From assembly GCA_015064355.1 (NCBI GenBank), contig SVSJ01000011.1:596-64595 (forward strand): a stretch of 64,000 nt of DNA, given 5' to 3'. The notes below the pieces were generated by a model. The model was not told the DNA's origin, did not search any database, and worked only from the letters and a program-made list of their open reading frames with translations. Position numbers and translations under genes: made by a program. The stretch comes from Oscillospiraceae bacterium. GTDB lineage: Bacteria > Bacillota > Clostridia > Oscillospirales > CAG-272. Below, piece by piece: positions 26,567-57,805 of this stretch; position 1 is the first letter of the stretch, and each line of letters begins with the position of its first letter.

Positions 26567-26589
26567 TCAGAAAACATTATACAATAAAA

Positions 26590-27300
26590 AAGAATCCACC
26601 CGTAAAACGGGTGGTTTTTCTTATGCGGGCATAGCCCTCTGTTCCTCGCGTGTGTGTAAACACACTTACACGTTCTGCCAACTGCGTAGGATTGTTACTT
26701 GCTGCCCGTGAACGGGCTGTTTTCATTTATTGCGAGCTGCTCGCCCAGCTTATCCTCTTTTAATTGGTTGGCGATGTACTCCGCAATTCGGCTCGTATTC
26801 TTTCCAGCTGTATCTACATAGTACCCTTTGCACCAAAATTCTCTGCTTCGATATTTATACTTCAACTCGCCGAATTGCTCATACAGCATCGTGCTGCTTT
26901 TCCCCTTTAGATATCCCATGAAACTTGACACACTGATTTTCGGCGGTATTTCTAACAACATATGCACGTGATCCGGACATACTTCCGCTTCTACTATCTT
27001 TACTCCTTTCCACTCGCACAGTTGTCTTAATATCTTTCCTACTTCTTTCCGCTTTTCTCCATAGAATACTTTGCGTCTATATTTCGGCGCAAACACTATA
27101 TGATACTTGCAATTCCACTTCGTGTGTGATAAACTGTTTATGTCATTTATACTCATTCCCAAATGACCTCCTTTGTTGTATTTCTCGTGCAGTTGGCCGA
27201 CCGCACTTACATTATACTACAAAGGAGTTTTTATTTCTTCCTTATCGGCTAAGCCTTGACCGAACCACGCGACTATCGCGTGGTTTTCTGCATACAACAA
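26590..27300 (-). mobile_element. IS200-type insertion sequence (IS200/IS605 family, tnpA only), about 0.7 kb
   Basis: A Y1 transposase ORF flanked by subterminal hairpins (26596-26614 ccacccg-taaaa-cgggtgg; 27265-27283 ccacgcga-cta-tcgcgtgg). The size matches classical IS200. Confidence 0.8.
26695..27156 (-). CDS. tnpA: IS200/IS605-family Y1 transposase
   Basis: LSHTKWNCKYHIVFAPKYRRKVFYG, CPDHVHMLLEIPPK (HUH-type HxH) and the catalytic Tyr region YIANQ. ATG at 27156 is 10 nt after GGAGG (the ORF-track TTG at 27162 is rejected). Confidence 0.9.
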   Translation of the reverse strand: MSINDINSLSHTKWNCKYHIVFAPKYRRKVFYGEKRKEVGKILRQLCEWKGVKIVEAEVCPDHVHMLLEIPPKISVSSFMGYLKGKSSTMLYEQFGELKYKYRSREFWCKGYYVDTAGKNTSRIAEYIANQLKEDKLGEQLAINENSPFTGSK

Positions 27301-27328
27301 AAGCCTTACTTTGTAGTAAGGCTTTTTT
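27301..27328 (-). terminator. Terminator after the giant Cys-rich gene
   Basis: Hairpin aagccttac-tttgta-gtaaggctt flanked by A/T runs. The same hairpin family occurs at 44158 and 47716. Confidence 0.6.
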
Positions 27329-27346
27329 GTTATTGGTTTTTCCGGA

Positions 27347-30300
27347 TCATTCAATGGTCTCGCCGGTAGAGATGATCTGCTTGTACGAATACTGCTCGCC
27401 GCTCTTAAGTGTTACATTAATAATCACAATGTCGTTCTCGAAGTCGTACTCGTATGTTTGCGTGTATTCGTCGCAACTGTACATTTCAGTATAACTGTTG
27501 CCGTCGTGCCAAATATAGCTCTCTTCATGCCACAAACCATCGGCGCTCACGAACTTCTCATACAGTAACAGATCTGTGGTAATGGTTCTCTTTTCTATTC
27601 TTGTATAAGAACCATAACATTCCTCAGTGGTCACGCGAATATCCGCCTCGAAATCATATTCGTAGGTTTCAATACCGTATTTAGTTGCCAAGCTTGTCTC
27701 ATAACGCACATCTCCGCGCCAAATATATGTTCTGCTGTACAGATCTCCGTCAATATTGTAGAAGTCACTTGCGATCATGTATCCCTCGGGAGAGTAGGTG
27801 TAAACCTCTGTAAGATTGTAGCTGTGGCCGCAATTCTCACACTCATCTGTGGTAGCAAGGGTAACAATTGTGTTGCCGTCTTCATCTACGAACTTTTCTA
27901 CTCCCACATCATTCCTGGAATAATTGTGTTCATAATAGTTCGCACTACGACTGTCTCCGCAGAATACGCAGGTGTGAACGATTGTCACGCCGTCATTGTT
28001 CCGGCAACCATCCTCGGGAATCACGCTGTTATTCTCATCGTAGAGATAGATGTGAGAGTCCATAGCGATGTAGTATACCAGGGTTGTTTCACCGGTGGGG
28101 ATGAATTCGACTCTGAGCTTGTATGTGCAAGCGTCAAGGCCAAGTTCTTTTGCTACTGCAGCTACTCCTGCTGCGTCGATGTAAAGTCTGTAATTATCCC
28201 GGTCTTCTGTGATAAGGGAATTATCAAGCTTTACAGGAGCCTCAAGGCTGTCTGCTGCAAGGCTGATACTATGAACATAGTCAACATCATAATAGTTGTA
28301 ATAGTTTACAATGTAGCTTGTTCCGTCGCCTTCATAGCTTACGTCAGTGAGTACCAGATTGCCGTTGGCACCGGTTTCGTTTTCAACATGGCACTTGTTA
28401 CAAACGTAAACGCCCTTGGTGCTGTCGAAGTAGAAGCTGTGACCGTCATAATTGGCTGAGCGATTGATTTCTGTCGTACCGCAAGCCATGCAGACCGAGG
28501 TCCATATGCTCTCAGCACAAGTGTAGGAAGAAGTGGTTGAATACAAAGTGATGTGTTCAGTATATTCTCCTGTCACTGTACCGCCGTTGCTGTTTGCGGT
28601 AACATGTATTACGTGGCAGTAGTCGCCGGATTCAGCACCGGGATATGTGAACTCATGCTTTTCCCAGTAGTATGCGTTTCCGTCTTTGTCGTAATCTTCA
28701 TAATAGAAGGAAATGGGAGCGAGTTCTTCAATTCCCAGAACAGCATAGTAAGTGCGCACTTCCTTGTCGGTGCAATATGTGCCGGTCATGTTGTCGTATT
28801 GCATCCATGTTTCTGTGACATAGCGATTTTCGACAGCATACTCATGAGTATATATCAACTGTCCGCAGTTTTCACAAGTGAGGGTTTCGGTGTATCCGGA
28901 CTCGCTGTAAACCTTCTCAGATTTCTCGATATGCTGCTTTCTGCCGCTATCCAAAGCGAAAGAATACTGTTTCTTATAGGTTTTTGCTTCTACGTCAACA
29001 CCGAAATAGAAGTTCTTGTATGTAACGCTGTTGCAGTTATCGTCTATAGCGCTGTATACTTCTTCTACCCAAACGAATCCGCATGCAGGATCGGTAACAG
29101 CACAGGTGCGTACTCTGTATTCGCGATCGTTCTCATAGAACCAACGTGTCTGGTAGTCGGAATTTTCGGGCCAATTGAATTCCATAATTCCGCCGCAAGG
29201 ACAGGTATAAAGCTCAAGCTTTTCTTCGCATACGGAACCGTATTCGGTCAGGTCGATTACCTGCTCAGGTCTGGAGTTTCTGTGATGTCCTGTACCTGCA
29301 AATGTTCTTTTGGTCTCTTCGCCACAGAGTGCGCAGTACCAGATTATGTCAACGCCGTCGTAGCAGGTTTCGCTGCCCTCGCTGAGAACATACTCGCTGG
29401 TGAACTTAGGATGCTGAGTATAAGTTTCCGTTGAAGCAGACGAGTTTTGTGCCACGCGCTCTGCCGTTACAAGGCAGGGATCTTCTTCGTCATAGGTGTA
29501 AGTGTATTCTTCCCAGTGCTCAACCTCGCCGTTATAATTCAGGTGCTCGTTATATCTGTACTTAACTCGTGTGATGGGCTCATCAAAGCCGTCAAGCTCG
29601 AAATAACAGTATTCCTCAACGGAGGTGAAAGTAAGTACCACTTTGGTTTCTTCCAGGTCTTCAACAACGTACTCGTATTCCTTTGCTTCCTCGCTAATAA
29701 GAAGTCCTGTTGCATCATACTTGGAAATTGTCTGACGCTTTCCGAATACTCTGAAGCAGTCCGCGCAGCTTACTTCGCTTGTTTCAACAACTGTGCGTGT
29801 GCCGTCAGCTTCGGTTACATCACTGCACTCATCGGGAATACGCTTCAATTCATTGGGATGTGACTCGTTAACCTTTACAAGTGACTCTTCACAAATAAAC
29901 TCTTCTCCAAAGTAAACCTTGTAGGTGGTTGTATTGGTATAACAGCAGTTTTCGTCCTTTTCGCCCCGTGTATATGTTCGTTCAATTCTCAGGTCACATT
30001 CAGTACATGTGTAAATGTCTTTGTCATTTTCATACTCTGCGTCGAATGTGCCATAGTCAAAACTTACACCGCCGGATTCGCCGCAAGCACATGAGCCGTA
30101 GCGTACGTTGTGGTCAGCACAGCCTTCCGTTACGTATTCTTCAACTTGTACGTGATAGCTGACCTGATATGTCTTGCTTACACCGCAAACAGAACAAACT
30201 CTGGTGTAAACAACACCGTCTTCGCAGGTTTCAGATCCCTCCATGAGGGCTGTGGAAACTATTACTTCATTGTGTCTTGTTCCTTGGGTTTCGCTTGACA

Positions 30301-33300
30301 TAGACTTGATTTCTTCCCCATTGTAGTAGAGAACATAGCTGTTGATAATCTTGACATTACAGTTTTCGTCTCTTTCGCCAACTATCTGAGTTATCTCAAT
30401 TCTCATGCTACATTCGGAGCAAGAGTAGATTTCTTTGTCGTTTTCTTTGCTCCAGTCGAATGTGCCATAGTCAAAACTTACACCGCCGTATTCACCGCAA
30501 GCGCATGAGCCGTAGCGTACGTTGTGGTCAGCACAGCCTTCCGTTACGTATTCTTCAACACGAGCGTGATATCTATCCTGATATGTTGAGGTTTTGCCGC
30601 ATTCGGAGCAAGCTCTGGTAACAACAACACCGTCCTCGCAGCTTGTTGCACCGTCAATAAGCACTGCCTCGGTGATCACATATTTGTGACTCGTCTGAAT
30701 GGTCTTTGTTGTCTTGTCGAGAACAACCTCTCCGTCAAATGTTGCAACATAGCGCCATTCGACTTCTTTTTTACAGTCTCCTATATCCGTTTCGGAAATA
30801 CGGCTCTCTTCAAGTACGATACCGCACTCGGAGCAGGAGTATGTCCATTTATTCTTTTCGTAGGTCTCTGTAAATGTGTCATAGTCAAACCATACGCCGC
30901 TCTCTGCACCGCAAGCGCACGCGCCGTAGCTTATGTTGTGGTCCTCGCAGCCGACTGTTACAGGCTCGGTGGTAGTAAGGTGGTAATATGCCTCATATGT
31001 TCCCACGTGTCCGCAGTCCACACAAGTCTCTGTAAAGGAGATACCGTCCACACAGGTTTCAGAGCCTTCCATAAGGGATACGGATGTTACTAATGCGTCG
31101 TGAAGTTCCTGAACACTCTTGAACTCCAGATATTCAATAAGCTCTTCACCGTAGCTGATTTGATAGCACAGGTCTACTGTAGCGTAGCAGTTTTCATCCT
31201 TTTCGCCTACGCTCTCCATCTGCCATATCTTCAAGTCACACTCGAGACAAGAATATGTGCGAGCACCCATAATGGAAGAAACATTAAACGTACTTCTGTC
31301 AAACCATATTCCACCAGCTTCTCCGCAAGCACATGAGCCATAGCGTACGTTGTGGTCAGCACAGCCTTTGGTTATGTATGTTTCAACACGGGCGTGATAG
31401 TATGAAGTATATGTTTCTTCTACTCCGCAGTCAGGGCAGGTTCTGGTGATGATAACACCGTCAAGGCAGCTCTTGGATCCATCCGCAAGAACCGCAGAGG
31501 TTGTGATAGCATTATGGTTTGTGCCGGTAGTATTGAATGTCAGCTCTTTGATGATCTCTCCGTTCAAGCTGATTACATAATCAAGGATAACGTCAACCGA
31601 ACAGTCTTCGTGCTTTTCGCCTTGAGTGTATCCCTCTTCAATTCTCAGACCACATTCATCACAGGTGTATACCCACTTATCGTTTACTCGGGTCTCTTCA
31701 AATGTCTCGTATTCATACCACAGTCCGCTGTTCTTACCGCAAGCACATGCGCCGTAATATATATTGTGGTCGGCACAGCCTTCGGTTATGTATTCCTCAA
31801 CACGAGCGTGATAGTAGAAAGTTGCTGTTTCCACATATCCGCAGTCGGTGCAGTTTCTGGTAACAATTACACCGTCAAGGCAGCTTTCGGAACCTTCCGC
31901 AAGAACCGTAGAGGTTACGCAATAGTTGTGTTCTGCGTCAGTGGATGTCTTTGTTATTCTGTCAACCAGTTCTTCTTCAAAGTAAACATCGCAATACCAT
32001 GTTTCTGTTACGGTGCAGTTTTCGTCCTTTTCGCTTGTTACCGTGTATATTTCAACACAGATGTCGCATACGGGACAGGAGTACGTCTCCTTGCCTTCCA
32101 CTTCGTCGTATGAATGATCAAATGTGGAATCATTGACATCAACACCGGCAGCTCCGCAATGGCATTCGGACAGTATGATATCGTGGTCAGCGCAGCCTAC
32201 GGCTATCTCGCGCTTTTCGATGTCATGCTCCGTGCGAGTATATGTATCAACATATTCTCTTACAATCTCAGAGCCCCAGAAAAGATTTATGTATTCAGTT
32301 ATTTCAACTTTGCAGTTTTCGTCCTTTTCGCCGGATTCGCTGGTAGCTTCAATGAATACGTCACAGTCGGGGCAGGACAGTTCTATTCTATCACCATCTT
32401 CAACAGCGTCGAAAGAATCGTAGACAAAGAGGAGAGTGGTGAATTCCTCGCACAAGCATCCTTGCTGAGCGAGATGGTGTTTCTCGCATCCCAAGTCCAT
32501 CGGAGTGCTGAGGAGATAGTGATATCTGCCGGATTCTGTTTCCACTCTGCCGCAGTCGGAGCAAGTAATTGTAAGGATTACGCCGTCCTTACAGCTCTGT
32601 GCATCTTCTGTCGCATACTCAGCAGTAATAACATCGTCGTGGCGTATTTCGGTTTCGTTCAATTCAGTCTCAACAAGGAGAGTATCGAGCAAATACAGCT
32701 TAGAAGTCCAAGTGCATGTAATTACACAGTTTTCGTCCTTTTCGCTCTCTGTGTAATATTCGTGAATCTGGATATCGCACATTGGGCAGGTGTATGTATA
32801 GTGACCGTCACCAAAGACGTCTGTGAATGAGGAGTAATCCGCAAAGAATTCCTCATTTGAAATCGCGCCGCAGTCACACTTGAAAATGAGTACGTTGTGA
32901 TGGTCGCAGCCATCAACGGTTACTCTGTTGTATTCGTGCTCGTGATCTTCGGGGATATCAGGCTCTACGGGAACGTCAGGCTCTACGGGAACGTTGCTCT
33001 TCTTCTCTTCGCCGCAAATTCTGCATTCGCCATAGTAGAAATCGTGTTCGCATTCGTGTTCGCATCTTGTACACTTGCCGCCCTCGTAGTTATGTCCGAG
33101 AGGCAGAGTGCTGTCAGTTACGCGCTCGCTTTCGCAAACCTTACAGATATACTTGGTGTATCCACCGGTTACGCAATCGGGCTCTACAACAGTTATTTCG
33201 TCATCGTGTTCTGTGCTGGGAAGCTCCTCAAAGTACTCGTTTCCGCACTTGGAGCAAACCATATATTCTTTACCGACTTCTGCACAAGTAGGCGCCTTAT

Positions 33301-35083
33301 AGCGGGTCTCGTCACTCTTATAATCATGGCCGAGAGCAGCCTTTGTTGTAGTATATGTGTTACGGCAAAGGTCACAGGAATACTGAGACTCGCCGGGAGC
33401 ATCACAAGTGGGAGCTGTTTCGGAGATCAATTCCCAATTGTGGCCAAGAGCCTCAATCTTTTCGGTGATCTGCTCGTATCCGCATCTGGAGCAACGGATT
33501 CCAACGTATCCACCGCTCATACAAGTTGCGGGAGCAGAGCTGTCGATGTAATTGTGGCCGTATGCTTCGCAGATTTCAGCCACAGTCATACGGATCACGC
33601 CGTAATCAGAGAAGTGATTTGTCTTAAATACAATATATCCGTCACGGTATTCAACGTCTTCAATTACGGTAACGTTGCCTTCTTCATCAATGTACCATAC
33701 CATGATCGTGTCAGGGTCCTCACCGTTTGCGAGAGCGTAAGGAATGGACACGGTTACCATGCCGTCGAAGTTTGTGATCTCGTCCTGGTTTTCATCTTTG
33801 ATAGTCAGGCTGTAAACTTCTGATTCGCTGAGTCTTTCCGCGATCTCATCGCTGATATTATCCATGTCGTCAACGTCGCGCATATCAGCGGAAACATAAA
33901 TATCCAAGCCGGAAAGCTGCTCTGATGTGATAGCATCGGGAGCGATCGTAATGTCATTTACGAGAATCTCGTCAGCATCTCCAAGAGAAGTCAGCTCGCC
34001 GGATACGGTTGCTGTGGTCTTCTTTGTTGTTTCGCAAAGGGAGCAAACATAGGTTGTTGTGTTACCTTCAGTAGCGCCCTCTGTCCAAGCGTGAGCGTCG
34101 GGATTTACGGGGATCTCGGTTTCTGACAGCACTTCGGAGCAGGTCCGGCAGGTTACTGTCTTTGCACCGGGCGCGCTGCAGGTTGCCTCAGTAACTGTAA
34201 CGTACTCGGCGTGATGCTCAAACTCGTCGGATACTCTTTCCATAGCCGCACCGCAAGTTTCACAAGCTGCAGTTTCCACCCAAACGTACACGCAGGTCTT
34301 GTCCGCCACTGCCTCCATTTCAGGTTCAGACCATGCAGAGTCAAGAGCTGTATGACCGGTCGCGGGAGCGGTGATCTCGGTGTATGTATAGTCACAGTAT
34401 TCGCAGCTGTATACAGTGTAGCCGTCCTCGGTACAAGTTGCCTCGAATACTTCAGTCTTTTCTTCGTCAAATGAGTGGCCCTTTGCAGGAATTACTGTTC
34501 CGCAAACAAAGCATACTCCGTCCTCGGTACAAGAAACTTCGTACTCGTGGCCGAACGCCAGGTCTTCACGGGTTTCTTCCAAGCCGCACACGTCGCAGGC
34601 CATTACTACAAATCCGTTTTCAAGACAGGTTGCTGCGTTTGTGTCATCCTTGACTTTCCACTCGTGCAGATCTGTATTTATAGGTGTGTAGTCAACTATA
34701 TCTGTCTCGCCGCATTCGCAGGCAATAATTGTGTATCCCTGCTCGCCGCAAGTGGGTTCTACTACTTCAAGCACTCCCCACTTCTCATCTTCGTGCTGAC
34801 ATATATAATACATGTCAGAGAAAAGGGTGTGTCCAAGCAGATAGATTGCGTCGTCCTTATCTATTTTCCCGTCCTTGTTGTAGTCGCAAGGCTGGTCTAC
34901 GGGATAAAGCTCTGAGAAAATTGTGTTTCCCAGCAGGTGAATGGCGTCATCCTTGTTGATAAATCCGTTTCCGTCCAAGTCGCCAACAGCATCTCTGGCA
35001 GCAAAAATGCCCGTGCTGAGTTGAAGTGTCAGACAAACAGCAAAAAACAAAGCAAAAATTATCTTTATGCCTGCTTTCTTCAT
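27347..35083 (-). CDS. 2578-aa secreted protein: N-terminal dockerin followed almost entirely by Cys-rich zinc-ribbon-like modules
   Basis: Signal peptide MKKAGIKIIFALFFAVCLTLQLSTGIFA. Dockerin loops GDLDGNGFINKDDAIHLLG and CDYNKDGKIDKDDAIYLLG. About 8 modules of type (A/P)TC...G.....C..C...GH. Eight ~138-aa repeats are each marked by (G/S)EKDENC. No LPXTG or C-terminal TM. Confidence 0.65.
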   Translation of the reverse strand: MKKAGIKIIFALFFAVCLTLQLSTGIFAARDAVGDLDGNGFINKDDAIHLLGNTIFSELYPVDQPCDYNKDGKIDKDDAIYLLGHTLFSDMYYICQHEDEKWGVLEVVEPTCGEQGYTIIACECGETDIVDYTPINTDLHEWKVKDDTNAATCLENGFVVMACDVCGLEETREDLAFGHEYEVSCTEDGVCFVCGTVIPAKGHSFDEEKTEVFEATCTEDGYTVYSCEYCDYTYTEITAPATGHTALDSAWSEPEMEAVADKTCVYVWVETAACETCGAAMERVSDEFEHHAEYVTVTEATCSAPGAKTVTCRTCSEVLSETEIPVNPDAHAWTEGATEGNTTTYVCSLCETTKKTTATVSGELTSLGDADEILVNDITIAPDAITSEQLSGLDIYVSADMRDVDDMDNISDEIAERLSESEVYSLTIKDENQDEITNFDGMVTVSIPYALANGEDPDTIMVWYIDEEGNVTVIEDVEYRDGYIVFKTNHFSDYGVIRMTVAEICEAYGHNYIDSSAPATCMSGGYVGIRCSRCGYEQITEKIEALGHNWELISETAPTCDAPGESQYSCDLCRNTYTTTKAALGHDYKSDETRYKAPTCAEVGKEYMVCSKCGNEYFEELPSTEHDDEITVVEPDCVTGGYTKYICKVCESERVTDSTLPLGHNYEGGKCTRCEHECEHDFYYGECRICGEEKKSNVPVEPDVPVEPDIPEDHEHEYNRVTVDGCDHHNVLIFKCDCGAISNEEFFADYSSFTDVFGDGHYTYTCPMCDIQIHEYYTESEKDENCVITCTWTSKLYLLDTLLVETELNETEIRHDDVITAEYATEDAQSCKDGVILTITCSDCGRVETESGRYHYLLSTPMDLGCEKHHLAQQGCLCEEFTTLLFVYDSFDAVEDGDRIELSCPDCDVFIEATSESGEKDENCKVEITEYINLFWGSEIVREYVDTYTRTEHDIEKREIAVGCADHDIILSECHCGAAGVDVNDSTFDHSYDEVEGKETYSCPVCDICVEIYTVTSEKDENCTVTETWYCDVYFEEELVDRITKTSTDAEHNYCVTSTVLAEGSESCLDGVIVTRNCTDCGYVETATFYYHARVEEYITEGCADHNIYYGACACGKNSGLWYEYETFEETRVNDKWVYTCDECGLRIEEGYTQGEKHEDCSVDVILDYVISLNGEIIKELTFNTTGTNHNAITTSAVLADGSKSCLDGVIITRTCPDCGVEETYTSYYHARVETYITKGCADHNVRYGSCACGEAGGIWFDRSTFNVSSIMGARTYSCLECDLKIWQMESVGEKDENCYATVDLCYQISYGEELIEYLEFKSVQELHDALVTSVSLMEGSETCVDGISFTETCVDCGHVGTYEAYYHLTTTEPVTVGCEDHNISYGACACGAESGVWFDYDTFTETYEKNKWTYSCSECGIVLEESRISETDIGDCKKEVEWRYVATFDGEVVLDKTTKTIQTSHKYVITEAVLIDGATSCEDGVVVTRACSECGKTSTYQDRYHARVEEYVTEGCADHNVRYGSCACGEYGGVSFDYGTFDWSKENDKEIYSCSECSMRIEITQIVGERDENCNVKIINSYVLYYNGEEIKSMSSETQGTRHNEVIVSTALMEGSETCEDGVVYTRVCSVCGVSKTYQVSYHVQVEEYVTEGCADHNVRYGSCACGESGGVSFDYGTFDAEYENDKDIYTCTECDLRIERTYTRGEKDENCCYTNTTTYKVYFGEEFICEESLVKVNESHPNELKRIPDECSDVTEADGTRTVVETSEVSCADCFRVFGKRQTISKYDATGLLISEEAKEYEYVVEDLEETKVVLTFTSVEEYCYFELDGFDEPITRVKYRYNEHLNYNGEVEHWEEYTYTYDEEDPCLVTAERVAQNSSASTETYTQHPKFTSEYVLSEGSETCYDGVDIIWYCALCGEETKRTFAGTGHHRNSRPEQVIDLTEYGSVCEEKLELYTCPCGGIMEFNWPENSDYQTRWFYENDREYRVRTCAVTDPACGFVWVEEVYSAIDDNCNSVTYKNFYFGVDVEAKTYKKQYSFALDSGRKQHIEKSEKVYSESGYTETLTCENCGQLIYTHEYAVENRYVTETWMQYDNMTGTYCTDKEVRTYYAVLGIEELAPISFYYEDYDKDGNAYYWEKHEFTYPGAESGDYCHVIHVTANSNGGTVTGEYTEHITLYSTTSSYTCAESIWTSVCMACGTTEINRSANYDGHSFYFDSTKGVYVCNKCHVENETGANGNLVLTDVSYEGDGTSYIVNYYNYYDVDYVHSISLAADSLEAPVKLDNSLITEDRDNYRLYIDAAGVAAVAKELGLDACTYKLRVEFIPTGETTLVYYIAMDSHIYLYDENNSVIPEDGCRNNDGVTIVHTCVFCGDSRSANYYEHNYSRNDVGVEKFVDEDGNTIVTLATTDECENCGHSYNLTEVYTYSPEGYMIASDFYNIDGDLYSRTYIWRGDVRYETSLATKYGIETYEYDFEADIRVTTEECYGSYTRIEKRTITTDLLLYEKFVSADGLWHEESYIWHDGNSYTEMYSCDEYTQTYEYDFENDIVIINVTLKSGEQYSYKQIISTGETIE
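29800..32900 (-). repeat. Eight divergent tandem coding repeats of ~414 bp (one of ~297 bp)
   Basis: The marker cagttttcgtccttttc (EKDENC) or a variant recurs at about 29947, 30361, 30775, 31190, 31600, 32015, 32312 and 32727. Confidence 0.8.
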
Positions 35084-35249: not shown

Positions 35250-37259
35250 TCATTTGTCGCCGTTAACATCCGCTGCTGATACGCTAATAACTACAAACTT
35301 ATGTCCGTTCTTATTTGCATAAGTTTCAGCAGTAGAGCCTGCGTAGCCATGGATTTCAAAAGCAGATCCGGTGTCATCAAACACATTCACGCTGAAATTT
35401 GCGTTTGTAGCGTGAACAACAATTTTGCTTAAGCCGCTGCACCCAGAGAATGCTTGGGTGTCAATTCGAGCTACGTTGTCAGAGATTATTAAGTCGCCCG
35501 TAAAGCCACTGCAGTCGGCGAATGCACGCGCACCAATTTCTGTTACGCTGTCGGGAATAACAAGCTCGCCTGTGAGCCCGCTGCAAAAATTGAATGTACC
35601 GCCCTTAATCCTTGTTACGTTATTGCTTATTACAAGTTTTCCTGTAAATCCGCTACAGTGATCGAATGCACCGCCACCAATCGATGTTACGCTATCGGGG
35701 ATTATAAGGTCGCCTGAAAATGCTTCGCACGATGAGAATGCACGATCACCAATCGTTGTAACACTATCCGGGATTACAAGGTTGCCTGTGAAGCCACTGC
35801 AGCTGGCGAATGCGCACTCACCAATCTCTTTTACGCTCTCCGAAATCATAAGGTTACCTACAAAACCGCTACAACCAAAGAATGCATATTGACTAATCGT
35901 AGTTATGCCATTGCCTATTACAAGATTCCCTGTAAAACCGGTGCAGAATTCGAAAGCATTTTCACCAATAGTCGTTAAGCTGTCAGGAATTACAAGGTCG
36001 CCTGAAAATGCTTCGCACGATGAGAATGCACGATCACCAATCGTTGTAACACTATCCGGGATTACAAGGTTGCCTGTGAAACCACTGCAGCTGATGAATG
36101 CAGCGTTACCGATCGATGTTACGCCTTCTGCAATCGTAAGTTTTGTCACAACACTATAATATTTGCCCCAAGGTGCAGTTGTGACAAATTGGTACAGTTT
36201 GGAATCATATTCCCAATTATAATCCCACATTTCACCAGTACCGCCGATAGCAAGCTCACCGTCTTCATACAAGGTCCAGGTGAGGTTGTCACCGCACTCA
36301 CCGGAATCAATCGGCACTTTGTTCGGTACGTATGCAACAGTCTTTTTTCCCTTGTTGTAGTTCACATCGGAGGTAATGATCACAAGGTCCTTGATGTCAA
36401 AGCATTTGTCACCGTTAATATCCGCTGTCTTTGTTTCTCCGTCTTCATATGACTGAGAATATGTAAGAGATGATGTGAGAAGGATTACGTCCTTGATGTC
36501 GATAACCAGGTCTCCGTTCACATTCCCCGCAAGAAGTGTGATGTTCGCGATCTCGGGATCATCGTTTTGGGTAAGGTCCAAAATCCCGCTCTCAACCACA
36601 ACTCCGGTAATAAGGTATTCAAGATGACAGTCCTTTGTTATCTTGAGATCATACGTTCCGGGGGCAATGTCGGAGATCACAAAGGGTTGTGTTACAGCAC
36701 CTTCTCCCTCAGCCGCAGGGATTGTAGTGCTTGCTACTGTCACGCCGTCCAGACAAAGCTCAACAAGTGTATCATTTGTGGGGTTATATGAGGTAACTTT
36801 TCCGGCAACAGCTGTTCCCTCAGACACAACCATAACACCCGCAGATGTTACAGGGATCGATTCACCGGTGTTAACCGTTCCACCGATCTCGTATGAGCCA
36901 ACAGCCGCTGTATCTTTAACCTTTAATGTGAATGAGTAAACAGCTCCGTCAACAGTTTCTGTTCCCTCAAATGCCAGAAGCGCCGCTCCCGTCTTTGAGA
37001 TGTCCGCATCACTGAGAGCTCCATCAACGAGCCAACAGCCACTTACAAATTCAAAGGTATTTTTGTCAAAAGTAGGAATGATACCTATTCTTCCAACGTT
37101 TTCTGTGCGGCTGATACTTACTGTTACGTCAAAAGTATCTCCCACAGTCACAGCCGAATCTGATACGCTGAATGAGCTGGATTCGCTGGCTATAACAGGA
37201 ATCATCAAAAGGCTGATCGTCAAAATCAAACACGTCAAAACAAGCAGAGTCTTTTTCAC
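35250..37259 (-). CDS. Adaptor-type protein: cohesin + Ig-like domain + dockerin + BspA-type leucine-rich repeats + truncated half-dockerin
   Basis: GTG at 37259 behind AAGGAG. Cohesin-like FSVSDSAVTVGDTFDVTVSI...FDKNTFEFVSG...AVYSFTLKVKDTAAVGSYEI. Dockerin GNVNGDLVIDIKDVILLTS + ADINGDKCFDIKDLVIITS. About 11 LRR units of type IGxxAFxxCSGFTGxLVIPDSVTx. Confidence 0.65.
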   Translation of the reverse strand: MKKTLLVLTCLILTISLLMIPVIASESSSFSVSDSAVTVGDTFDVTVSISRTENVGRIGIIPTFDKNTFEFVSGCWLVDGALSDADISKTGAALLAFEGTETVDGAVYSFTLKVKDTAAVGSYEIGGTVNTGESIPVTSAGVMVVSEGTAVAGKVTSYNPTNDTLVELCLDGVTVASTTIPAAEGEGAVTQPFVISDIAPGTYDLKITKDCHLEYLITGVVVESGILDLTQNDDPEIANITLLAGNVNGDLVIDIKDVILLTSSLTYSQSYEDGETKTADINGDKCFDIKDLVIITSDVNYNKGKKTVAYVPNKVPIDSGECGDNLTWTLYEDGELAIGGTGEMWDYNWEYDSKLYQFVTTAPWGKYYSVVTKLTIAEGVTSIGNAAFISCSGFTGNLVIPDSVTTIGDRAFSSCEAFSGDLVIPDSLTTIGENAFEFCTGFTGNLVIGNGITTISQYAFFGCSGFVGNLMISESVKEIGECAFASCSGFTGNLVIPDSVTTIGDRAFSSCEAFSGDLIIPDSVTSIGGGAFDHCSGFTGKLVISNNVTRIKGGTFNFCSGLTGELVIPDSVTEIGARAFADCSGFTGDLIISDNVARIDTQAFSGCSGLSKIVVHATNANFSVNVFDDTGSAFEIHGYAGSTAETYANKNGHKFVVISVSAADVNGDK
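35706..36093 (-). repeat. Recent internal duplication within the LRR region (100 bp with one mismatch, offset 288 bp = 4 LRR units)
   Basis: 35706-35805 versus 35994-36093. 87 bp are identical, then one g/a mismatch, then 12 more identical bases. Confidence 0.85.
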
Positions 37260-37397
37260 AATCTTTCTCCTTGGGATAAATATAGTAATACACAATTATA
37301 CTACCTCTTGTCAAACTTTTTTGCAAACGTTTTTTGTTTCCAAATTGTAAACAAACTGTGTATTAAATTCCAAAAATATTAATTTTTCGTTTTAAAA
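37225..37397 (-). repeat. Duplicated 5' region, copy 2 (see 22328-22500)
   Basis: 103 bp are identical to 22328-22430. It contains TATAAT (minus strand, 37300-37295). Confidence 0.85.
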
Positions 37398-37516
37398 ATC
37401 AGTAAGAACTGTTTTTCGCGCAAAAAAGCCCTACTGTGGTAAGGGTGATGTCCTTATCGGAGAAATTACAGTATGGGCATAGCTCTGTGCATTTGTTAAA
37501 CAAATGCGAAACTTGC

Positions 37517-37587
37517 AAAAAAAAAACAGAAAGAGAGAACAATGTGGAGTAGAAACCACTTAGTTCTCTCTGTTTTTCTGCTTTTTT
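37517..37587. terminator. Bidirectional terminator-like hairpin
   Basis: A-run, then a 9-bp perfect stem agagagaac / gttctctct (37532-37540 / 37563-37571) with an inner gtgg/ccac pair, then gtttttctgctttttt. Confidence 0.45.
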
Positions 37588-37790
37588 AGTGATATTCTTT
37601 GCTTTCGCAAAGAGTGATATTATTGCTGTTGCAATAGTGATATTGAAGCCTTACGGCTTCAGTGGTATTCTATTCGCCTATAACTTGCGTAGCAAATATC
37701 ACTCGGCGTAAGCTGAATATCACTGCGAAGCAATACCACTCGCCACAGGCGAATAGAACTGGCGTGATACTCCGTTAAGAGTATCACGCC
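37588..37790. repeat. MITE-like 203-bp array of AGTGATATT-type 9-mers (4 direct, 3 inverted, plus a terminal palindromic pair) interleaved with mini-hairpins
   Basis: Forward copies at 37588, 37613, 37636 and 37661 (agtgGtatt). Inverted aatatcact at 37695 and 37716, and aataCcact at 37732. Palindrome ggcgtgatactc-cgttaa-gagtatcacgcc at 37761-37790. The outer ends form an imperfect TIR, GTGATA(T/C)TC. Confidence 0.7.
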
Positions 37791-37808
37791 TAGCAGGGCT
37801 TTTTGTTT

Positions 37809-39779
37809 TTATTCTTCTCTTATGTGATAATACATTGTGGGGAACGACTTACCTACAGTGAATCGGAGGACACCGTCCTCGTATGTTGTGGGAAGCGCAC
37901 CTATGTAGAAGCCCTCCGCGCTCACAGCCCACACCTTCATTGTGGGGCAGGATGTGCGAAGCTCAATGTCCGCTTCGATCACTTCAATAGTAATGGGAGC
38001 TGTGCCGTATTCCAGCATCAGGTCTCCGTCGAACTTGGCTCCTGTGTTCTTTGCGCGTCCTACAGTTGTAAGGAGAATGTTGTCGCACTTGTCAAGGGGC
38101 TCGTCAGAAAGAGAGGACAGAGCAACTACCGCAAAGTCAGTCTTACCCTCGACTGCAAGTCCGTCGATTTCGATCTTGCCGTTTTTCTCAAGGAAGCCGT
38201 AAATGCACTTGGAACGAGGGGTATAGATGGTGCCGTAATTCTTATCCCAGTTGCGGTATAGCTCGCCTGTATCGGAACGAACCTCCTTCTTTGAAAGATC
38301 CACAAGAGCGGTCTTTTCGTCGATCACACGGTCAGCAGTAGAGGGGCCATCGTCGTATTCCATACCGATCTTGGTGTACTCGGAAACTGCAGCAAGCTCG
38401 TCAAAGGGGCAAGTGTTCATAGTCAGCGCCTTCATTGCAGTGGTGTTCGGGGATTCCTTTACGTCGCCACGGCGGGTCATAAGTGCCGCATGGTAGAAGA
38501 GGCCGAACTTTGCAGGGTCGTTCCAGGTGGAGAAAATACCCTCTCTGTATGCTGTGCCGCCGATGGATTCCGCGCTGATCTCCTTGCCGAGCATTTTCAT
38601 ATTCTCAAGATGAGAGGAATATGCGTAGGTGTGGATCGCAAATCCCGACCAGCCCTGGAGAAGTCCCGCCGCCGCAAAGAGAATCGGGGATTCCGCTCTG
38701 TATTCGTTAGGCCATGGCATATCCCACTCGGAGCAGAACATAGGTCTGCCGAAGGAGCGAGCCGCCGCCATATGGTGCAAAAATCCGTCAGGCGCCTGAG
38801 TCAAGGCTGTGTTGAGGAATCGCTGATCTCCCGGATTCCAACGCCAATCGTAGAAGTAGAAGTGGCTGTCGTTGAAATCACACACGTTGTTGGGCTTTCT
38901 CTGCTCGTTGGTAACTGCCCAGTTTGTGCCGCAGATGGGTATCTTCACTCCGATCTCACGGAGGCAGTTTATCATATCAATATAGTGATCCTCCTGGAGC
39001 TTGACACGGAACGCGGACTGCACGGGATCGTCGAAATCGTTGATATTGCAGGTATAGGGATCAAGCTCCGCTCCCGTTTCCTTCACCCAATCTGCAAGCA
39101 GGTCGCGGTAAATGGTAACGTAGGGCTCGATGTCGATCTTGTAAATTGAGAAGTCGCTTTCGTTGACGATCTCCGCCATAACGATCGCGGGCTCGTCCTT
39201 GTATGCAACTCCGGTGAACTCGTTAACGTGATTCCACAGGTCTCTGGCAAGCTGCTTCTGAAGCTCCACGATTCTGGGTGCGAAATAGTTGTAGGGCTTT
39301 GCGCCGTCCTTGAGAATAAACGCGTTCTCTACCCCGTCACCTGTCTTGAACTTACGGTAGGTATACATATCCATGTAAGTATAGATACCCTCTTCCTTGA
39401 GACAGTAGATAAGGTAGTCAAGGCGTCTCATGCTTTCCGGGTCAAAGGACTGGGTGTTCTTCTGGTGAGGGCCTTTGGTGAACTGAAAAATGTTCGGCGT
39501 TGCCCACTCCGCGTCAAGCTGGTGGAGTCTGACAATGTTGCATCCGATCTTAGAGAGGCGCTTTGCGAAGTTTTCCGCGTAATCGTAGTCGGGGAAATTG
39601 TGGCCGCTGTTTACGTTAGTACCCCAGAAGCGAGCCACGGTTCCGTCCTCGAAAACCAGCTTATCACCGACAGCCTTAAGGAAGCCGTGCTTACCTGCGG
39701 GCTTTTCACCGTCGAAAATAAAGCTTATATCAAAGGGCGCGTCATTTGGGTTTGCTGGAAATGGAATATATCTTGACAT
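37809..39779 (-). CDS. Clan GH-A TIM-barrel glycoside hydrolase, GH5-like, no signal peptide
   Basis: ARFWGTNVNSGHNF, CNIVRLHQLD and the candidate acid/base motif MAEIVNESD. 656 aa. Family assignment is from memory only. Confidence 0.45.
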   Translation of the reverse strand: MSRYIPFPANPNDAPFDISFIFDGEKPAGKHGFLKAVGDKLVFEDGTVARFWGTNVNSGHNFPDYDYAENFAKRLSKIGCNIVRLHQLDAEWATPNIFQFTKGPHQKNTQSFDPESMRRLDYLIYCLKEEGIYTYMDMYTYRKFKTGDGVENAFILKDGAKPYNYFAPRIVELQKQLARDLWNHVNEFTGVAYKDEPAIVMAEIVNESDFSIYKIDIEPYVTIYRDLLADWVKETGAELDPYTCNINDFDDPVQSAFRVKLQEDHYIDMINCLREIGVKIPICGTNWAVTNEQRKPNNVCDFNDSHFYFYDWRWNPGDQRFLNTALTQAPDGFLHHMAAARSFGRPMFCSEWDMPWPNEYRAESPILFAAAGLLQGWSGFAIHTYAYSSHLENMKMLGKEISAESIGGTAYREGIFSTWNDPAKFGLFYHAALMTRRGDVKESPNTTAMKALTMNTCPFDELAAVSEYTKIGMEYDDGPSTADRVIDEKTALVDLSKKEVRSDTGELYRNWDKNYGTIYTPRSKCIYGFLEKNGKIEIDGLAVEGKTDFAVVALSSLSDEPLDKCDNILLTTVGRAKNTGAKFDGDLMLEYGTAPITIEVIEADIELRTSCPTMKVWAVSAEGFYIGALPTTYEDGVLRFTVGKSFPTMYYHIREE

Positions 39780-41195: not shown

Positions 41196-41386
41196 AGTTT
41201 TCTCCTATCTGAAGCCATCTGAACTAACTATTTAAACTATACTACAATCATCGTCGCAAAGTCAAGGGGATTTGGAGAAATGAGGGGTTTTTTCTCCTCC
41301 ACCTTTCCGCTTTCCACTTGCATTTACCGCTTTACCGTGATATAATACAAGCGACAATAAAACCAAAAAATCAGCGGAGGTTTGCT

Positions 41387-43258
41387 ATGGCGCGCTGGAT
41401 GATTGAAAAAGCAAAGGAACAGATCAAGTGGATTCCAACTCCGGGTGAGGCTCACGTTGACGATGTCGAATTTTCCGGATACGGCTGCTCTGACATTGTC
41501 ACTTACGGTACAGACGAAGCCGGCGAGCTGATACTCACTCATCACCCGGTATTCCCCACCCTGCGCCGCCGTCCCAACGATACACACGCATCCTTCCAGC
41601 TTGATATACCCGCCCTGTCTGTTTACGTTGACGGAGAAGAGGCTCCCGAGACTGTGGATAAAGTGACGATAGGCGGCGGTTTTCTGACTATTTACACAAA
41701 GAGTGGCAACCTCTCCATCACTCGCCGTTTCTTCCCCTCCGCTAAAAAAAGAGCATCATACGAGCAGATCACTGTAGATCACCCGTCCGGATGCAAGGTC
41801 ACTGTTCACCACCCTGCTCTCGGCAAGGTTGACGAGCTTATGGGCCCTATGGGTGTGTGCATTGCTGAGCTGAGCTTTGAAGCCGAGCCCGGCGACACCA
41901 CGTCAAAGTTCAACGTAATGTACAGCGGCAGATACGCAAACGAGCCGACCCCCGAAAACACAGCCGACGCGGATCTTGAAGCCCGAATCGCACGGTACAA
42001 AGAACTTACCGCGCCTATGACAATGAGCACAGGTGACCGGGTTTACGATACCCTATTCCATTTTGCAAAGCTGAGAGCAGGCGAGTCTGTGTTTGACACA
42101 AAATTCGGCAAGGTCCACTCCCCCGGCGGATATTCATACTACGCGGCAACCTGGTGCAACGACCAAGTTGAATACGCAGGACCGTACTTCGCTTACACAG
42201 GCGACCCGGCATTACTTGAAGCAAGCATGAACGCGTACCGTATGTACATCCCCTTTATGAGCGATTCCTACTCTCCCATTCCCAGCTCCGTTATTGCGGA
42301 AGGTCTGGACTACTGGAACGGAGTTGGCGACCGAGGAGACGCAGCAATGTACCTCTACGGCGCATCCCGTTTCGTCCTCACCTGTGGCAGAGAAGACTGG
42401 GCGCGTGAACTGCTTCCTGCAATTCAGTGGTGCGCTGAATACTGCCGCAGAAAAAAGAACGAGCTTGGAGTTATCGAATCTGACACAGACGAGCTTGAAA
42501 ATCGCTTCTCCAGCGGTAAGATGAATCTGAACACCTCCTGCCTGGCTCTGGCGGGCTACCGTTATGCATCAATTCTCTGCCGCGAGCTTGGTCTTTGCGA
42601 CTGTGCTGACGAATACAAAGCCGCAGCGGACGACCTTGCCATTGCCATTGATCAGGTCTTTGGCAAGAATATCCACGGCTACGACACTTACGCATACCAC
42701 GAGGGCTGCGAGGTGCTTCGCTCCTGGATCTGTATGCCCCTTTGCGCAGGACTTACAAATCGTGCAGAGGGAACGGCGGCAGCGCTGACATCCGGCTACC
42801 TGTTCCGCCCCGAAGGAATGCTGACCACTGAAGAAAACAACACCATCTGGGACAGATCCACCCTGTACGCTCTCCGCGGTCTTTACATAGCAGGCGAGAG
42901 TACAAAAGCCTCGGAATGCCTGCACATTTACAGCGAAAACCGACTTCTCGGCGAGAGAGTTCCCTATCCGGTTGAAGCATATCCCGAGGGAGGCCGCCGT
43001 CATTTGTCCGGCGAATCCGCCCTCTACTGCAAGATATTCACAGAAGGTCTCCTCAAGCTTGAGCCTACAGGACTCCGTTCATTTACCCTATGCCCGACCC
43101 TTCCCGACGGTGTGGATCATCTCTATATGACGGGCATTCACGCACACGGCGGCGTCTTTGACGTTCTCGTAGAAAAGGACAGCTACACCGTGCGCCTGTC
43201 CGACGGAACTGTAGTTGCCGGGGGTACTGTTGGTGAAGCATCTGCTGTTACTCTGTAA
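41387..43258 (+). CDS. Hypothetical protein, possibly an (alpha/alpha)6-barrel glycosidase-like enzyme
   Basis: ATG at 41387 behind GGAGG (the ORF-track start at 41318 is rejected). Helix-rich C-terminal half with acidic motifs (ESDTDELENRF). I recall no firm family match. Confidence 0.3.
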   Translation: MARWMIEKAKEQIKWIPTPGEAHVDDVEFSGYGCSDIVTYGTDEAGELILTHHPVFPTLRRRPNDTHASFQLDIPALSVYVDGEEAPETVDKVTIGGGFLTIYTKSGNLSITRRFFPSAKKRASYEQITVDHPSGCKVTVHHPALGKVDELMGPMGVCIAELSFEAEPGDTTSKFNVMYSGRYANEPTPENTADADLEARIARYKELTAPMTMSTGDRVYDTLFHFAKLRAGESVFDTKFGKVHSPGGYSYYAATWCNDQVEYAGPYFAYTGDPALLEASMNAYRMYIPFMSDSYSPIPSSVIAEGLDYWNGVGDRGDAAMYLYGASRFVLTCGREDWARELLPAIQWCAEYCRRKKNELGVIESDTDELENRFSSGKMNLNTSCLALAGYRYASILCRELGLCDCADEYKAAADDLAIAIDQVFGKNIHGYDTYAYHEGCEVLRSWICMPLCAGLTNRAEGTAAALTSGYLFRPEGMLTTEENNTIWDRSTLYALRGLYIAGESTKASECLHIYSENRLLGERVPYPVEAYPEGGRRHLSGESALYCKIFTEGLLKLEPTGLRSFTLCPTLPDGVDHLYMTGIHAHGGVFDVLVEKDSYTVRLSDGTVVAGGTVGEASAVTL

Positions 43259-44143: not shown

Positions 44144-44157
44144 ATCACAAAACAAAA

Positions 44158-44187
44158 AGCCTTACTTCATCGGTAAGGCTTTTTTTG
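44158..44187 (+). terminator. Rho-independent terminator
   Basis: agccttac-ttcatcg-gtaaggct followed by TTTTTTT. Confidence 0.7.
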
Positions 44188-47705: not shown

Positions 47706-47715
47706 GTAAAAGAAA

Positions 47716-47742
47716 AGCCTTACTTAATTGTAAGGCTTTTTT
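47716..47742. terminator. Bidirectional terminator between convergent genes
   Basis: agccttac-ttaatt-gtaaggct flanked by A-run and T-run. Confidence 0.7.
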
Positions 47743-57694: not shown

Positions 57695-57805
57695 AATGTC
57701 CTCCAAAAATTTGTAAGAGTTGGAATAATTATAACACCGTTTGATTAATTATGCAATAGATAATTGAAAAAACTTGAATATTTCGCGCATTTTCTGTGTA
57801 TTTTT

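Follow-up and report, generated by a model that had tools for sequence, protein, structure and literature searches.

The locus described here raises the question of what occupies the space between two minus-strand genes in a 64,000-nucleotide stretch of DNA from an Oscillospiraceae bacterium (GenBank assembly GCA_015064355.1, contig SVSJ01000011.1, positions 596 to 64,595), referred to below as the window. The gene upstream in the sense direction is GH5-like (37809-39779), and the gene downstream encodes a protein with BspA-type leucine-rich repeats (LRR; 35250-37295). A first-pass annotation had described the segment between them as a non-coding, non-autonomous element resembling a miniature inverted-repeat transposable element (MITE), with a 203-bp unit of 9-mers and small hairpins inserted into a terminator. 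Our analysis points to Gut-1 (RF01706). What Rfam models is one half of a larger core with two arms, this core travels on an insertion that lands in terminator loops, and it is found almost invariably upstream of the genes of one abundant clade of the protein family PF05635. To our knowledge, Gut-1 has stayed an orphan since 2010: it is plentiful in the human gut and has had no host organism, partner or function. PF05635 proteins are among the commonest uncharacterised small bacterial proteins.

The sense strand of the element is the minus strand of the window. The features listed by the first-pass annotation (seven 9-mers, a palindrome, a bracket, mini-hairpins and the absence of a real open reading frame, ORF) were all found where it had placed them. 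The 9-mer AGTGATATT occurs at 37588, 37613 and 37636 and AGTGGTATT at 37661 on the plus strand, with reverse complements at 37695, 37716 and 37732. The motif AGTGRTATT is present eight times in the window, where 0.9 copies are expected and none of 100 shuffles reached eight, and seven of these lie within 37588-37740, with one elsewhere in the 64 kb. A repeat finder gave the palindrome GGCGTGATACTC/GAGTATCACGCC (37761-37772/37779-37790) as 100% complementary and the bracket AAAAAGCCCTACT/AGCAGGGCTTTTT (37423-37435/37792-37804) as 92% complementary. It also gave a long-range 12-bp stem (37668-37679 with 37747-37758) which the annotation had not listed, as it had not listed a strong terminator-like hairpin (T1, 37517-37587) or a conserved tail (37436-37516). 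Three mini-hairpins of differing sequence can be read directly, and the ORFs overlapping the segment are only mechanical ones of 40-47 aa. On both strands the fold of the whole segment is much more stable than that of shuffled sequence (z = -11.4 and -14.0).

The origin of the segment was addressed by comparison of alleles. Exact copies of the GH5-like protein were found on five metagenome contigs, each with an identical element. The empty allele is on Logan contig L246 (our handles for loci begin with L), where the GH5-like protein P0001 is 97% identical and its stop codon is followed by a simple, intact terminator of the same family, aaaaataaaGCCTTACTAtctaTAGTAGGGCtttttt, with no element. 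The DNA past this terminator is homologous to window positions 37300-37420, so that the flanks are homologous on both sides. The filled allele reads aaaaaGCCCTGCTA, then GGCGTGATAC ... GGACATCACCCTTACCA, then CAGTAGGGCtttttt. From these two alleles we conclude with high confidence that ~355 nt (~37437-37792) represent one insertion in the loop of the intrinsic terminator of the GH5-like gene. Thus, the proposed insertion was borne out and the search for an empty site succeeded, but the unit is ~355 nt and not 203 bp. A first metagenome scan with the GH5-like protein had found nothing, and GH5-like homologues at 69% and 61% identity were not syntenic and were set aside as sources of an empty site.

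The bracket had been read as the two halves of a terminator whose family is used elsewhere in the window, and three more intact members of that family (AAAGCCTTAC-loop-GTAAGGCTTT) are present at 27300-27325, 44156-44182 and 47714-47739, where none is expected by chance. These recurrent, near-identical terminator stems are themselves repeat-like. An equivalent bracket (A-run, stem of 10-17 nt, T-run), different in sequence each time, surrounds 19 of 62 other copies, compared with 17 of 185 in the control. At the ends of the unit, GGCGTGATACTCTTAACGGAG on the left matches the reverse complement of GGGTGATGTCCTTATCGGAG on the right at ~16 of 20 positions by direct reading (the profile hit is weak, E = 0.1). 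The left-end hairpin, P0, is ~80% similar to the right-end motif in inverted orientation by profile comparison and direct reading; in other copies the P0 loop is flipped, and the ends become direct repeats. No clear target duplication of fixed length was seen at the pair of empty and filled sites. An identical AT-rich 3-mer stands on both sides in five of ten long forms and two of three positions match in the other five, chance matches being likely in AT-rich loops. A candidate 9-bp duplication at the window site could not be reproduced in other copies.

The identity of the inserted core was examined with Rfam and with a covariance model, R1, built in this analysis from 53 elements. When the whole window was compared with Rfam at gathering scores, no family passed. 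A permissive scan below those scores placed Gut-1 at 37691-37761 on the minus strand over the full length of the model, with 48.4 bits (E = 2e-8) against a gathering score of 50 bits, and gave a weaker Gut-1 match of 28 bits on the plus strand over the other arm. No other Rfam family accounts for any of the segment, T1 and tail included. The same arm in sister loci exceeds the gathering score in 9 of 20 cases, at 51.3-63 bits. In addition, the Gut-1 seeds BAAZ01000095 and BAAZ01025322 are collinear with the window through P0, the 5' arm, the closing stem and the 3' arm in a direct alignment. In the authors' flanked alignment these two seeds are laid out as the window is, with a strong hairpin, an arm of GUGAUAU and hairpins, a long-range stem, and AUAUCAC with hairpins; in one seed an outer stem encloses the whole layout. 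R1 found a single copy in the window and 77 full-length copies elsewhere, at 124-202 bits. Because sister copies pass the threshold, the seeds are collinear and R1 finds homologues, the window element is very probably a Gut-1 member lying just below the threshold.

The Rfam model describes 77 nt of a core of ~175 nt, that is, one arm and under half of the conserved unit. Across the family the core holds seven to eight copies of one 9-mer, AGUGAUAUU followed by its complement AAUAUCACU. The Gut-1 motif was described from human-gut sequences with no sequenced organism (Weinberg et al. 2010, PMC2864571), and both that study and Rfam class it as a non-coding RNA gene. No later paper on Gut-1 was found in the literature searched. 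Four points are new with respect to the literature available: a core with two arms, its host taxa, the polymorphism of the insertion and the close tie to PF05635. The first-pass annotation had offered a structured RNA as its alternative. The core does prove to be Gut-1, a putative RNA, but the Gut-1 family has no known function, so the hit leaves the structure unexplained.

Other copies, which the first-pass annotation had proposed to look for, are numerous. A pattern scan of one-genome-per-species contigs with three GTGATAT(T) motifs gave at least 120 loci (the rough chance expectation is ~1), nearly all of them in gut or rumen metagenome-assembled genomes (MAGs) of Oscillospiraceae, Acutalibacteraceae, Ruminococcus, Christensenellaceae and Lachnospiraceae. 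The hits outside Clostridia that were read, both in Bacteroidales, were plain tandem repeats and not family members, and a loose pattern (three GTGAWAT) returned mostly noise from viral contigs. The motifs run forward and then reverse in nearly all copies, the anatomy is asymmetric and the length is uniform at 167-180 nt.

The pairing statistics were taken from 77 aligned sequences and should be read with the caveat that the alignment was fitted to the structure of the model itself. In this alignment 95.2% of cells are paired, both sides change in 32 of 43 pairs, and the covariation score is 0.529 compared with 0.04-0.08 when partners are slid. In the mini-hairpins of the 5' arm (h1-h3), 96-99% of cells are paired and 11 of 12 pairs change on both sides. 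All 20 pairs of the 3'-arm hairpins (H1-H3) are supported, 19 by changes on both sides and one being invariant. In the closing stem one pair switches between AU (34), CG (20) and UA (19) across the 77 sequences. The 9-mers are far more conserved than the spacers, in which the hairpin sequence is free and the pairing is kept. The 9-mers are spaced 16-27 nt apart, apical insertions of 20-30 nt are tolerated, and large insertions are confined to hairpin tips (L192, L230, L209, L234). The covariation and the restriction of insertions to the tips indicate that the stems are selected as stems, contrary to a plain row of double-strand protein sites. Thus, the idea that the spacers between the 9-mers are neutral is not supported.

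Copies differ within genomes as well. Where one MAG locus contains a pair of copies (L240, L151, L209), the two have diverged and compensatory changes are seen between them. At L162 a further Gut-1 copy (1655-1831, minus strand), also diverged, lies 1.7 kb from the tRNA-linked one of the same locus and has the best Rfam score seen, 74 bits; therefore, several diverged copies per genome do occur. Within the 64 kb of the window there is one copy, with no near-identical second one. Christensenellales and other taxa commonly have single-arm versions, with AUAUCAC units only. These point the same way as the upstream gene, and in many cases a terminator comes directly after them. At L185 (1900-2200, Butyrivibrio crossotus) a single-arm unit, GGAATATTCCATAACT plus five or six ATATCAC with hairpins between, is tandemly duplicated with a period of ~154 nt. 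Pairing between the two arms of the core was also considered and was rejected, as duplexfold gave -42.64 kcal/mol for cognate and -42.69 for non-cognate arms (p = 0.51). Beyond the conserved 9-mers, which alone could pair, the arms do not co-evolve with each other.

The copies have a consistent genomic position and polarity. The core starts ~45 nt past the stop codon of a co-directional gene in 46 cases, compared with 10 in the opposite orientation, and downstream genes show no orientation bias (30 vs 22). In 12 loci, all co-directional, the core starts ~35 nt past the last tRNA of an operon, and one copy lies downstream of an rRNA operon. The last 9-mer is followed on its 3' side either by a terminator, as in the window, or by a near-consensus promoter, its -35 box in contact with the 9-mer. 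In L129 (1727-1775), L165 (downstream of the core) and L225 (4990-5030), tRNA-like T-arm fragments (GGATTCGAACG, GGGGTTCGAAC) that ARAGORN did not call closely follow the tRNA-linked element. These fragments may be remnants of integration sites.

Full-length relatives, 0.8-1.25 kb long, share both ends with the window unit, P0 on the left and UCUCCGAUAAGRACAUCAC on the right. They lie in terminator loops or directly after tRNA terminators and are always co-oriented with the upstream gene. In L181, L134 and L339 the outer terminator stem encloses P0, the core, the promoter, a PF05635 gene, zero or one small ORF and the right-end motif as in the window. The further small ORFs of full-length elements have no Pfam hits. 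A 118-aa protein is encoded directly downstream of the core in L126, L127, L134, L181 and L183, and a 24-aa remnant of it in L237. It matches PF05635, the four-helix-bundle family of 23S rRNA intervening-sequence proteins (IVSP) and Avd (E = 3.7e-28), and TIGR02436 (E = 9e-32), with a bAvd Pfam hit at E = 9e-4, and its closest solved relative is 2RLD, with five chains in the entry. The family is described as uncharacterised and homologous to Avd, a protein of diversity-generating retroelements (DGRs) (PMC10053308).

The association was examined from both directions. First, 795 kb of element-flanking DNA was covered for PF05635 genes or remnants, and six of the six found lie directly downstream of a core. 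Secondly, in a reverse test an alignment of four PF05635 proteins was used as the query. It returned 80 metagenomic loci, mostly from human gut, 76 of them with enough upstream DNA. In many cases different samples supplied the same species; even so, the loci contain ~25 distinct promoter-region sequences. A core on the same strand, ending ~50 nt before the PF05635 start codon, is present in 75 of the 76 loci, and the 76th keeps the last 9-mers; the loci retrieved include that of the Gut-1 seed BAAZ01025322. The PF05635 gene of full-length members is predicted to be expressed from a near-consensus promoter, whose -35 box directly adjoins the last 9-mer at all the distinct PF05635 loci examined. 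We are confident of the linkage between PF05635 and the core, although with slightly more reserve than of the insertion. It is described nowhere in the literature found.

No other partner emerged. Neither the full-length copies nor the neighbourhoods of the 120 loci listed contain a transposase, a recombinase or a reverse transcriptase, so the cognate transposase that the first-pass annotation had proposed to look for was not found there. The neighbour genes of these loci are ordinary and heterogeneous, with metabolic ones recurring, and PF05635 is the sole exception. An IS200-like gene of the window (26695-27156, minus strand; Pfam Y1_Tnp, E = 1e-40; flanks 26560-27340) was considered as a partner, as it shares CCGATAAGGA and GGGCTATGCCC with the tail. 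It was rejected, since the tail profile has no match to its flanks, no homologue lies near the 120 elements listed, and the gene is at one fixed locus in all places shown of the 24 contigs read. The gene stands just after the terminator of a 2578-aa gene, is flanked by the hairpins CCACGCGA..TCGCGTGG and CCACCCG..CGGGTGG, and appears to be fixed, not mobile.

The window copy is an internally deleted, partly inverted, non-autonomous derivative of the full-length elements. It is 90.6% identical to L339 and L181 over P0 and the core and 87-93% at the right end, and its tail hairpin segment matches, in inverted orientation, the leader that follows the IVSP gene in those two elements. The identity and the inverted leader together mark it as protein-less, deleted and rearranged. 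Its non-coding, non-autonomous character, as first annotated, therefore agrees with relatives that carry genes between the same two ends. The leader belongs to a second conserved non-coding module (GGGTATGGGC..GCCC, then GCATTTGT-loop-ACAAATGC, then GAAACTGG), which forms a 5' leader ahead of cargo ORFs. This module is found at 2357-2422 in L339, after the IVSP stop codon in L181, after the core promoter in L199 and L159, and inverted at 37470-37516 in the window. Copies of it occur both with and without the PF05635 gene, and Rfam has no match to it.

The features of the window copy are collected in the table, in sense order.

Features of the terminator-loop insertion in the window (plus-strand numbering; the sense strand is minus)
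Feature	Position	Strand	Remarks
Outer stem, 5' half (AAAAAGCCCTGCTA)	37792-37806	-	Left half of host terminator, parted from its partner; complementary to 37423-37435
P0, perfect 12-bp hairpin (GGCGTGATACTC-TTAACG-GAGTATCACGCC)	37761-37790	-	Left end of inserted unit
Conserved 174-nt core (Gut-1 arm plus second arm)	37588-37761	-	R1 189.7 bits on minus strand, 55.8 bits on plus strand; collinear with Gut-1 seeds
5' arm (part modelled by Rfam as Gut-1)	37680-37760	-	GUUCUAU, P1 (CGCC-UGU-GGCG), AGUGGUAUU, AGUGAUAUU, AGUGAUAUU, with mini-hairpins h1-h3 between
Closing stem, 3' strand (AGGCGAAUAGAA)	37668-37679	-	Pairs with 37747-37758 (UUCUAUUCGCCU); encloses 5' arm
3' arm	37588-37669	-	AAUACCACU, then three AAUAUCACU; hairpins H1-H3 between, loops GUAA, AACA, GAAA
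Promoter-like site	37643-37671	+	TTGAAG, 17 nt, TGgTATTCT; faces P0 and upstream gene; consensus match only
T1, long hairpin (CAGAAAAACAGAGAGAAC...GUUCUCUCUUUCUG) then U10	37517-37587	-	Repeat finder and fold
Tail: hairpin GCAUUUGU-UUAA-CAAAUGC, GCUAUGCCC, right-end motif UUUCUCCGAUAAGGACAUCACCC (~37442-37466)	37436-37516	-	Conserved in 14 long forms
Outer stem, 3' half (CAGUAGGGC) and U-run	37421-37435	-	Right half of host terminator; aligned to empty allele

Several of these features recur in relatives. P0 also opens many homologues and the full-length elements L181 and L339. On the sense strand the 5' arm runs GUUCUAUUCGCC, P1, and then three units of AGUGRUAUU plus mini-hairpin, and the 3' arm has four AAUAYCACU motifs with a hairpin of 6-7 bp after each of the first three. 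P1 and the closing stem both use the same UUCGCC and are mutually exclusive, and the 3' strand of the closing stem includes an invariant -10-like TAnAAT. The antisense promoter-like site (TTGAAA/G, 16-17 nt, TGnTATTNT) is at the same position in 36 of 57 homologous cores and is the only recurrent high-scoring site within the core. The position of T1 is conserved in other protein-less long forms, and T1 looks like the element's own intrinsic terminator, apparently bidirectional. The tail profile matches the window at E = 3e-17.

Other matches to parts of the element are scattered in the window. A 19-nt exact copy of a 9-mer plus H2 (ATCACTATTGCAACAGCAA; blastn E = 8e-5) lies at 57651-57669 on the plus strand, within the part of ORF 56039-57706 (minus) that codes for a signal peptide, and may be a chance match or a captured fragment. 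The 10-mer CCGATAAGGA of the right-end motif occurs exactly at 27239-27248 (minus), 37451-37460 (minus), 56769-56778 (plus) and 60451-60460 (minus), one exact copy being in the left flank of the IS200-like gene. With at most one mismatch it has 14 matches, compared with 3.2 expected. The window also contains large ORFs at 27347-35083 (minus), 3829-8628 (minus), 41318-43258 (plus) and 44916-47705 (plus). The Pfam scan covered three of these, the 2578-, 646- and 929-aa ORFs, which have no match; the fourth is of 1599 aa. The 2578-aa ORF is located between the BspA-LRR gene and the IS200-like gene.

We propose that the core acts as a folded single strand, most likely an RNA that extends the upstream transcript at its 3' end and stops at T1, the terminator of the element itself. 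The 9-mers would be displayed as single-stranded linkers between the hairpins and would form a multivalent platform for an oligomeric PF05635 protein, supplied in cis by full-length copies and in trans to copies of the window type. The sites of the 3' arm could be masked or unmasked by the 5' arm, which is complementary, and by P1 and the closing stem, which exclude each other. As a whole, comprising insertion, family and single-strand platform for a PF05635 oligomer, this reading has in our view about an even chance of being right. Avd, a homologue of the PF05635 protein, is an accessory protein that binds RNA and reverse transcriptase. Binding of the core by the PF05635 protein is itself a tentative suggestion, in our view somewhat less likely than not. 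The broadest form of the proposal is more doubtful again, namely that the Gut-1 core and PF05635 are two halves of one unrecognised hairpin-loop-seeking system, in which an oligomer of the Avd and intervening sequence (IVS) family binds the array of 9-mers and hairpins as RNA or folded single-stranded DNA (ssDNA), the terminator-loop insertions share their biology with the IVSs of 23S rRNA, and the window copy is a passenger served in trans.

Whether the core acts as RNA rather than DNA seems to us evenly balanced on the sequence evidence. RNA is favoured by the position and polarity of a 3' untranslated region (UTR), by the element's own terminators, by the Rfam classification, and by the GNRA loops of the 3' arm, of which 36 are on the sense strand and none on the other. 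Several points weigh against the proposal. First, the changes are almost only from one Watson-Crick pair to another, with G-U in 1.4% of paired cells and A-C in 1.0% (47 vs 34). Most RNA families do not behave in this way, and selection on both strands or on DNA would fit. Assignment of the strand by wobble pairs was tried and was abandoned, as these counts gave no decision overall or per helix. Secondly, the 5'-arm loops are UUC or UAC on the sense strand and GAA or GUA on the other, where h1 reads GCGAAGC or GCGTAGC in 62 of 77 copies; we take this to be a classic hyper-stable DNA mini-hairpin and a weak RNA hairpin. Third, the window of 64 kb contains no PF05635 gene, such a gene adjoins only ~6% of cores, and one identical protein (P0178) is always at one locus, with no sign of recent spread. 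Lastly, the fit of the covariation alignment to the model's structure, noted above, counts here too.

The explanation that survives best beside this one is that the hairpins act as ssDNA, folding in a mobile-DNA intermediate or a lagging-strand template, with 9-mers and hairpins as signals for an enzyme encoded elsewhere. Integron attC sites and the ends of IS200/IS605 elements are precedents for recognition of folded ssDNA. The Watson-Crick-only covariation with G-U about equal to A-C, and the reverse-strand h1 sequence in those 62 of 77 copies, fit this view. So does the layout of the arms: on opposite strands and read outward from the centre, each is a 9-mer plus a stem closed by a GNRA loop or a GNA triloop. 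Insertion is into a hairpin loop, in a fixed orientation, and the empty site is without a clear target duplication. However, no HUH, tyrosine or serine recombinase gene is present in full-length elements or near the 120 loci listed, and the IS200-like tnpA of the window is at one fixed locus with flanks that do not match the tail profile. The element also has its own terminator and promoter and is placed exactly as a 3'UTR, and RNA would explain the GNRA loops and the terminators that follow the AUAUCAC arm just as well. We consider the ssDNA explanation unlikely.

It is quite improbable that the 9-mers are a double-strand operator or activating array for the abutting promoter, for example in PF05635 autoregulation, with the window copy a decayed, functionless remnant. 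The contact between the last 9-mer and the -35 box at PF05635 loci, which is the same in copies followed by other small genes, is as an operator would have it; so is the conservation of the 9-mers far above that of the spacers, and the lack of G-U pairs fits DNA. Nevertheless, an operator leaves the hairpin covariation and the apical insertions unexplained, and the variable spacing is poor for phased binding. Furthermore, the window copy and ~20 others have a terminator after the array, yet the core is intact (189.7 bits in the window).

An independent trans-acting small RNA, a protein sponge or one directed against ribosome-binding sites, carried on the insertion and unrelated to PF05635, is slightly less probable still. 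Such a role is in line with the class given to Gut-1, a non-coding RNA gene, and small RNAs that act as protein sponges have a similar build, with single-stranded motifs repeated between hairpins. In addition, AAUAUCACU is complementary to GGUGAUAUU, which is found at some ribosome-binding sites, for example that of the PF05635 gene in L181. However, so tight a linkage to PF05635 is not explained by coincidence, the window has only one AGTGRTATT outside the element and so no target pool, and there is no conserved sense-strand promoter upstream of the core. Mimicry of the anti-Shine-Dalgarno sequence was rejected separately: the 9-mer shares only AUCAC with the 3' end of 16S rRNA, and its complement is not enriched in the window.

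A classical MITE, in which a DDE transposase of the Tn7, Mu or IS21 type binds the 9-mers as double-strand sites and the arms are fused ends, as the first-pass annotation had suggested, is the least probable of these explanations. It would account for the inverted arrays (forward then reverse sites in nearly all copies), the imperfect inverted repeat of ~20 nt at the ends of the unit, the empty site and, weakly, the AT-rich 3-nt junction matches in five of ten long forms. However, the arrays are internal both in the 355-nt unit and in full-length elements of 1.2 kb (L339 is a 1.15-kb unit with both arrays at most 200 nt from its left end), the spacers are selected as hairpins, spacings of 16-27 nt with apical insertions of 20-30 nt are tolerated, one arm can exist alone and no full-length copy has a transposase gene. 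Of the general MITE characters, the small size, the lack of a transposase gene and the presence/absence alleles are retained, but no autonomous relative with a transposase was found among the full-length copies, and the copies paired at one MAG locus are not near-identical. An RNA of a type III toxin-antitoxin system (ToxI-like) was rejected, since the units differ in every hairpin and no neighbour except PF05635 is conserved.

The reading of the core as a single-strand platform for PF05635 proteins has consequences beyond this locus. If the Gut-1 core and PF05635 bind each other, both orphans gain a function. If this is true, the origin of rRNA intervening sequences, which are also hairpin-loop insertions and sometimes have PF05635, becomes experimentally approachable. 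Annotation pipelines give this region as nothing or as a sub-threshold Gut-1, and the Rfam model could be extended.

The element can be compared with five known systems. Gut-1 itself shares the 5' arm, which is the motif, with three to four hairpins parted by GUGAnAU, and its seeds share P0 and both arms. Its description differs in having no 3' arm, closing stem, P0, T1, tail, insertion polymorphism or PF05635 linkage, and the window copy, at 48.4 bits, falls under the gathering score. The hosts found here are MAGs of Oscillospiraceae, Acutalibacteraceae, Ruminococcus, Christensenellaceae and Lachnospiraceae, whereas the original paper had no sequenced organism.

Bacterial MITEs and intergenic repeats (Correia, ERIC, BOX, RUP; REP/BIME) are likewise small and non-coding, lie at the 3' ends of genes, and have strong structure and empty-site alleles. 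They are co-transcribed with their neighbours, and some have outward promoters or terminators. The element differs in that no cognate transposase or RAYT is known, copies in one genome differ by compensatory changes (L240), and the larger relatives carry PF05635 and not a transposase. Its hairpin sequences are free while the linkers are conserved, which is the opposite of REP.

In integron attC sites, too, conservation is seen in the folded structure of a single strand and in a few short boxes, with the remaining sequence and the length variable, and these sites are a precedent for covariation limited to Watson-Crick pairs in a mobile element. The element differs in its architecture and has no integrase, R/L box consensus or cassette array.

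With DGRs, the element shares the fold and family neighbourhood of Avd, the accessory protein, a small basic helical oligomer working with a structured RNA next to its gene; the homology of PF05635 and Avd has been discussed (PMC10053308). It differs in that no reverse transcriptase, template or variable repeat is near any element, and the DGR RNA is without an array of 9-mers and hairpins.

Lastly, the IVSs of 23S rRNA differ in their hosts, which are helix 25 or 45 of 23S rRNA and not, as here, the terminators of protein genes and tRNA operons. We know of no core of the Gut-1 type, with repeats and hairpins, in classical IVSs. In both cases, however, the insertion is in the apical loop of a host RNA hairpin, the host helix closes the insert, many copies are protein-less, and some encode a four-helix-bundle protein of PF05635 (named S23p in the IVSs), which the window copy itself is without and its relatives encode (75 of 76 loci).

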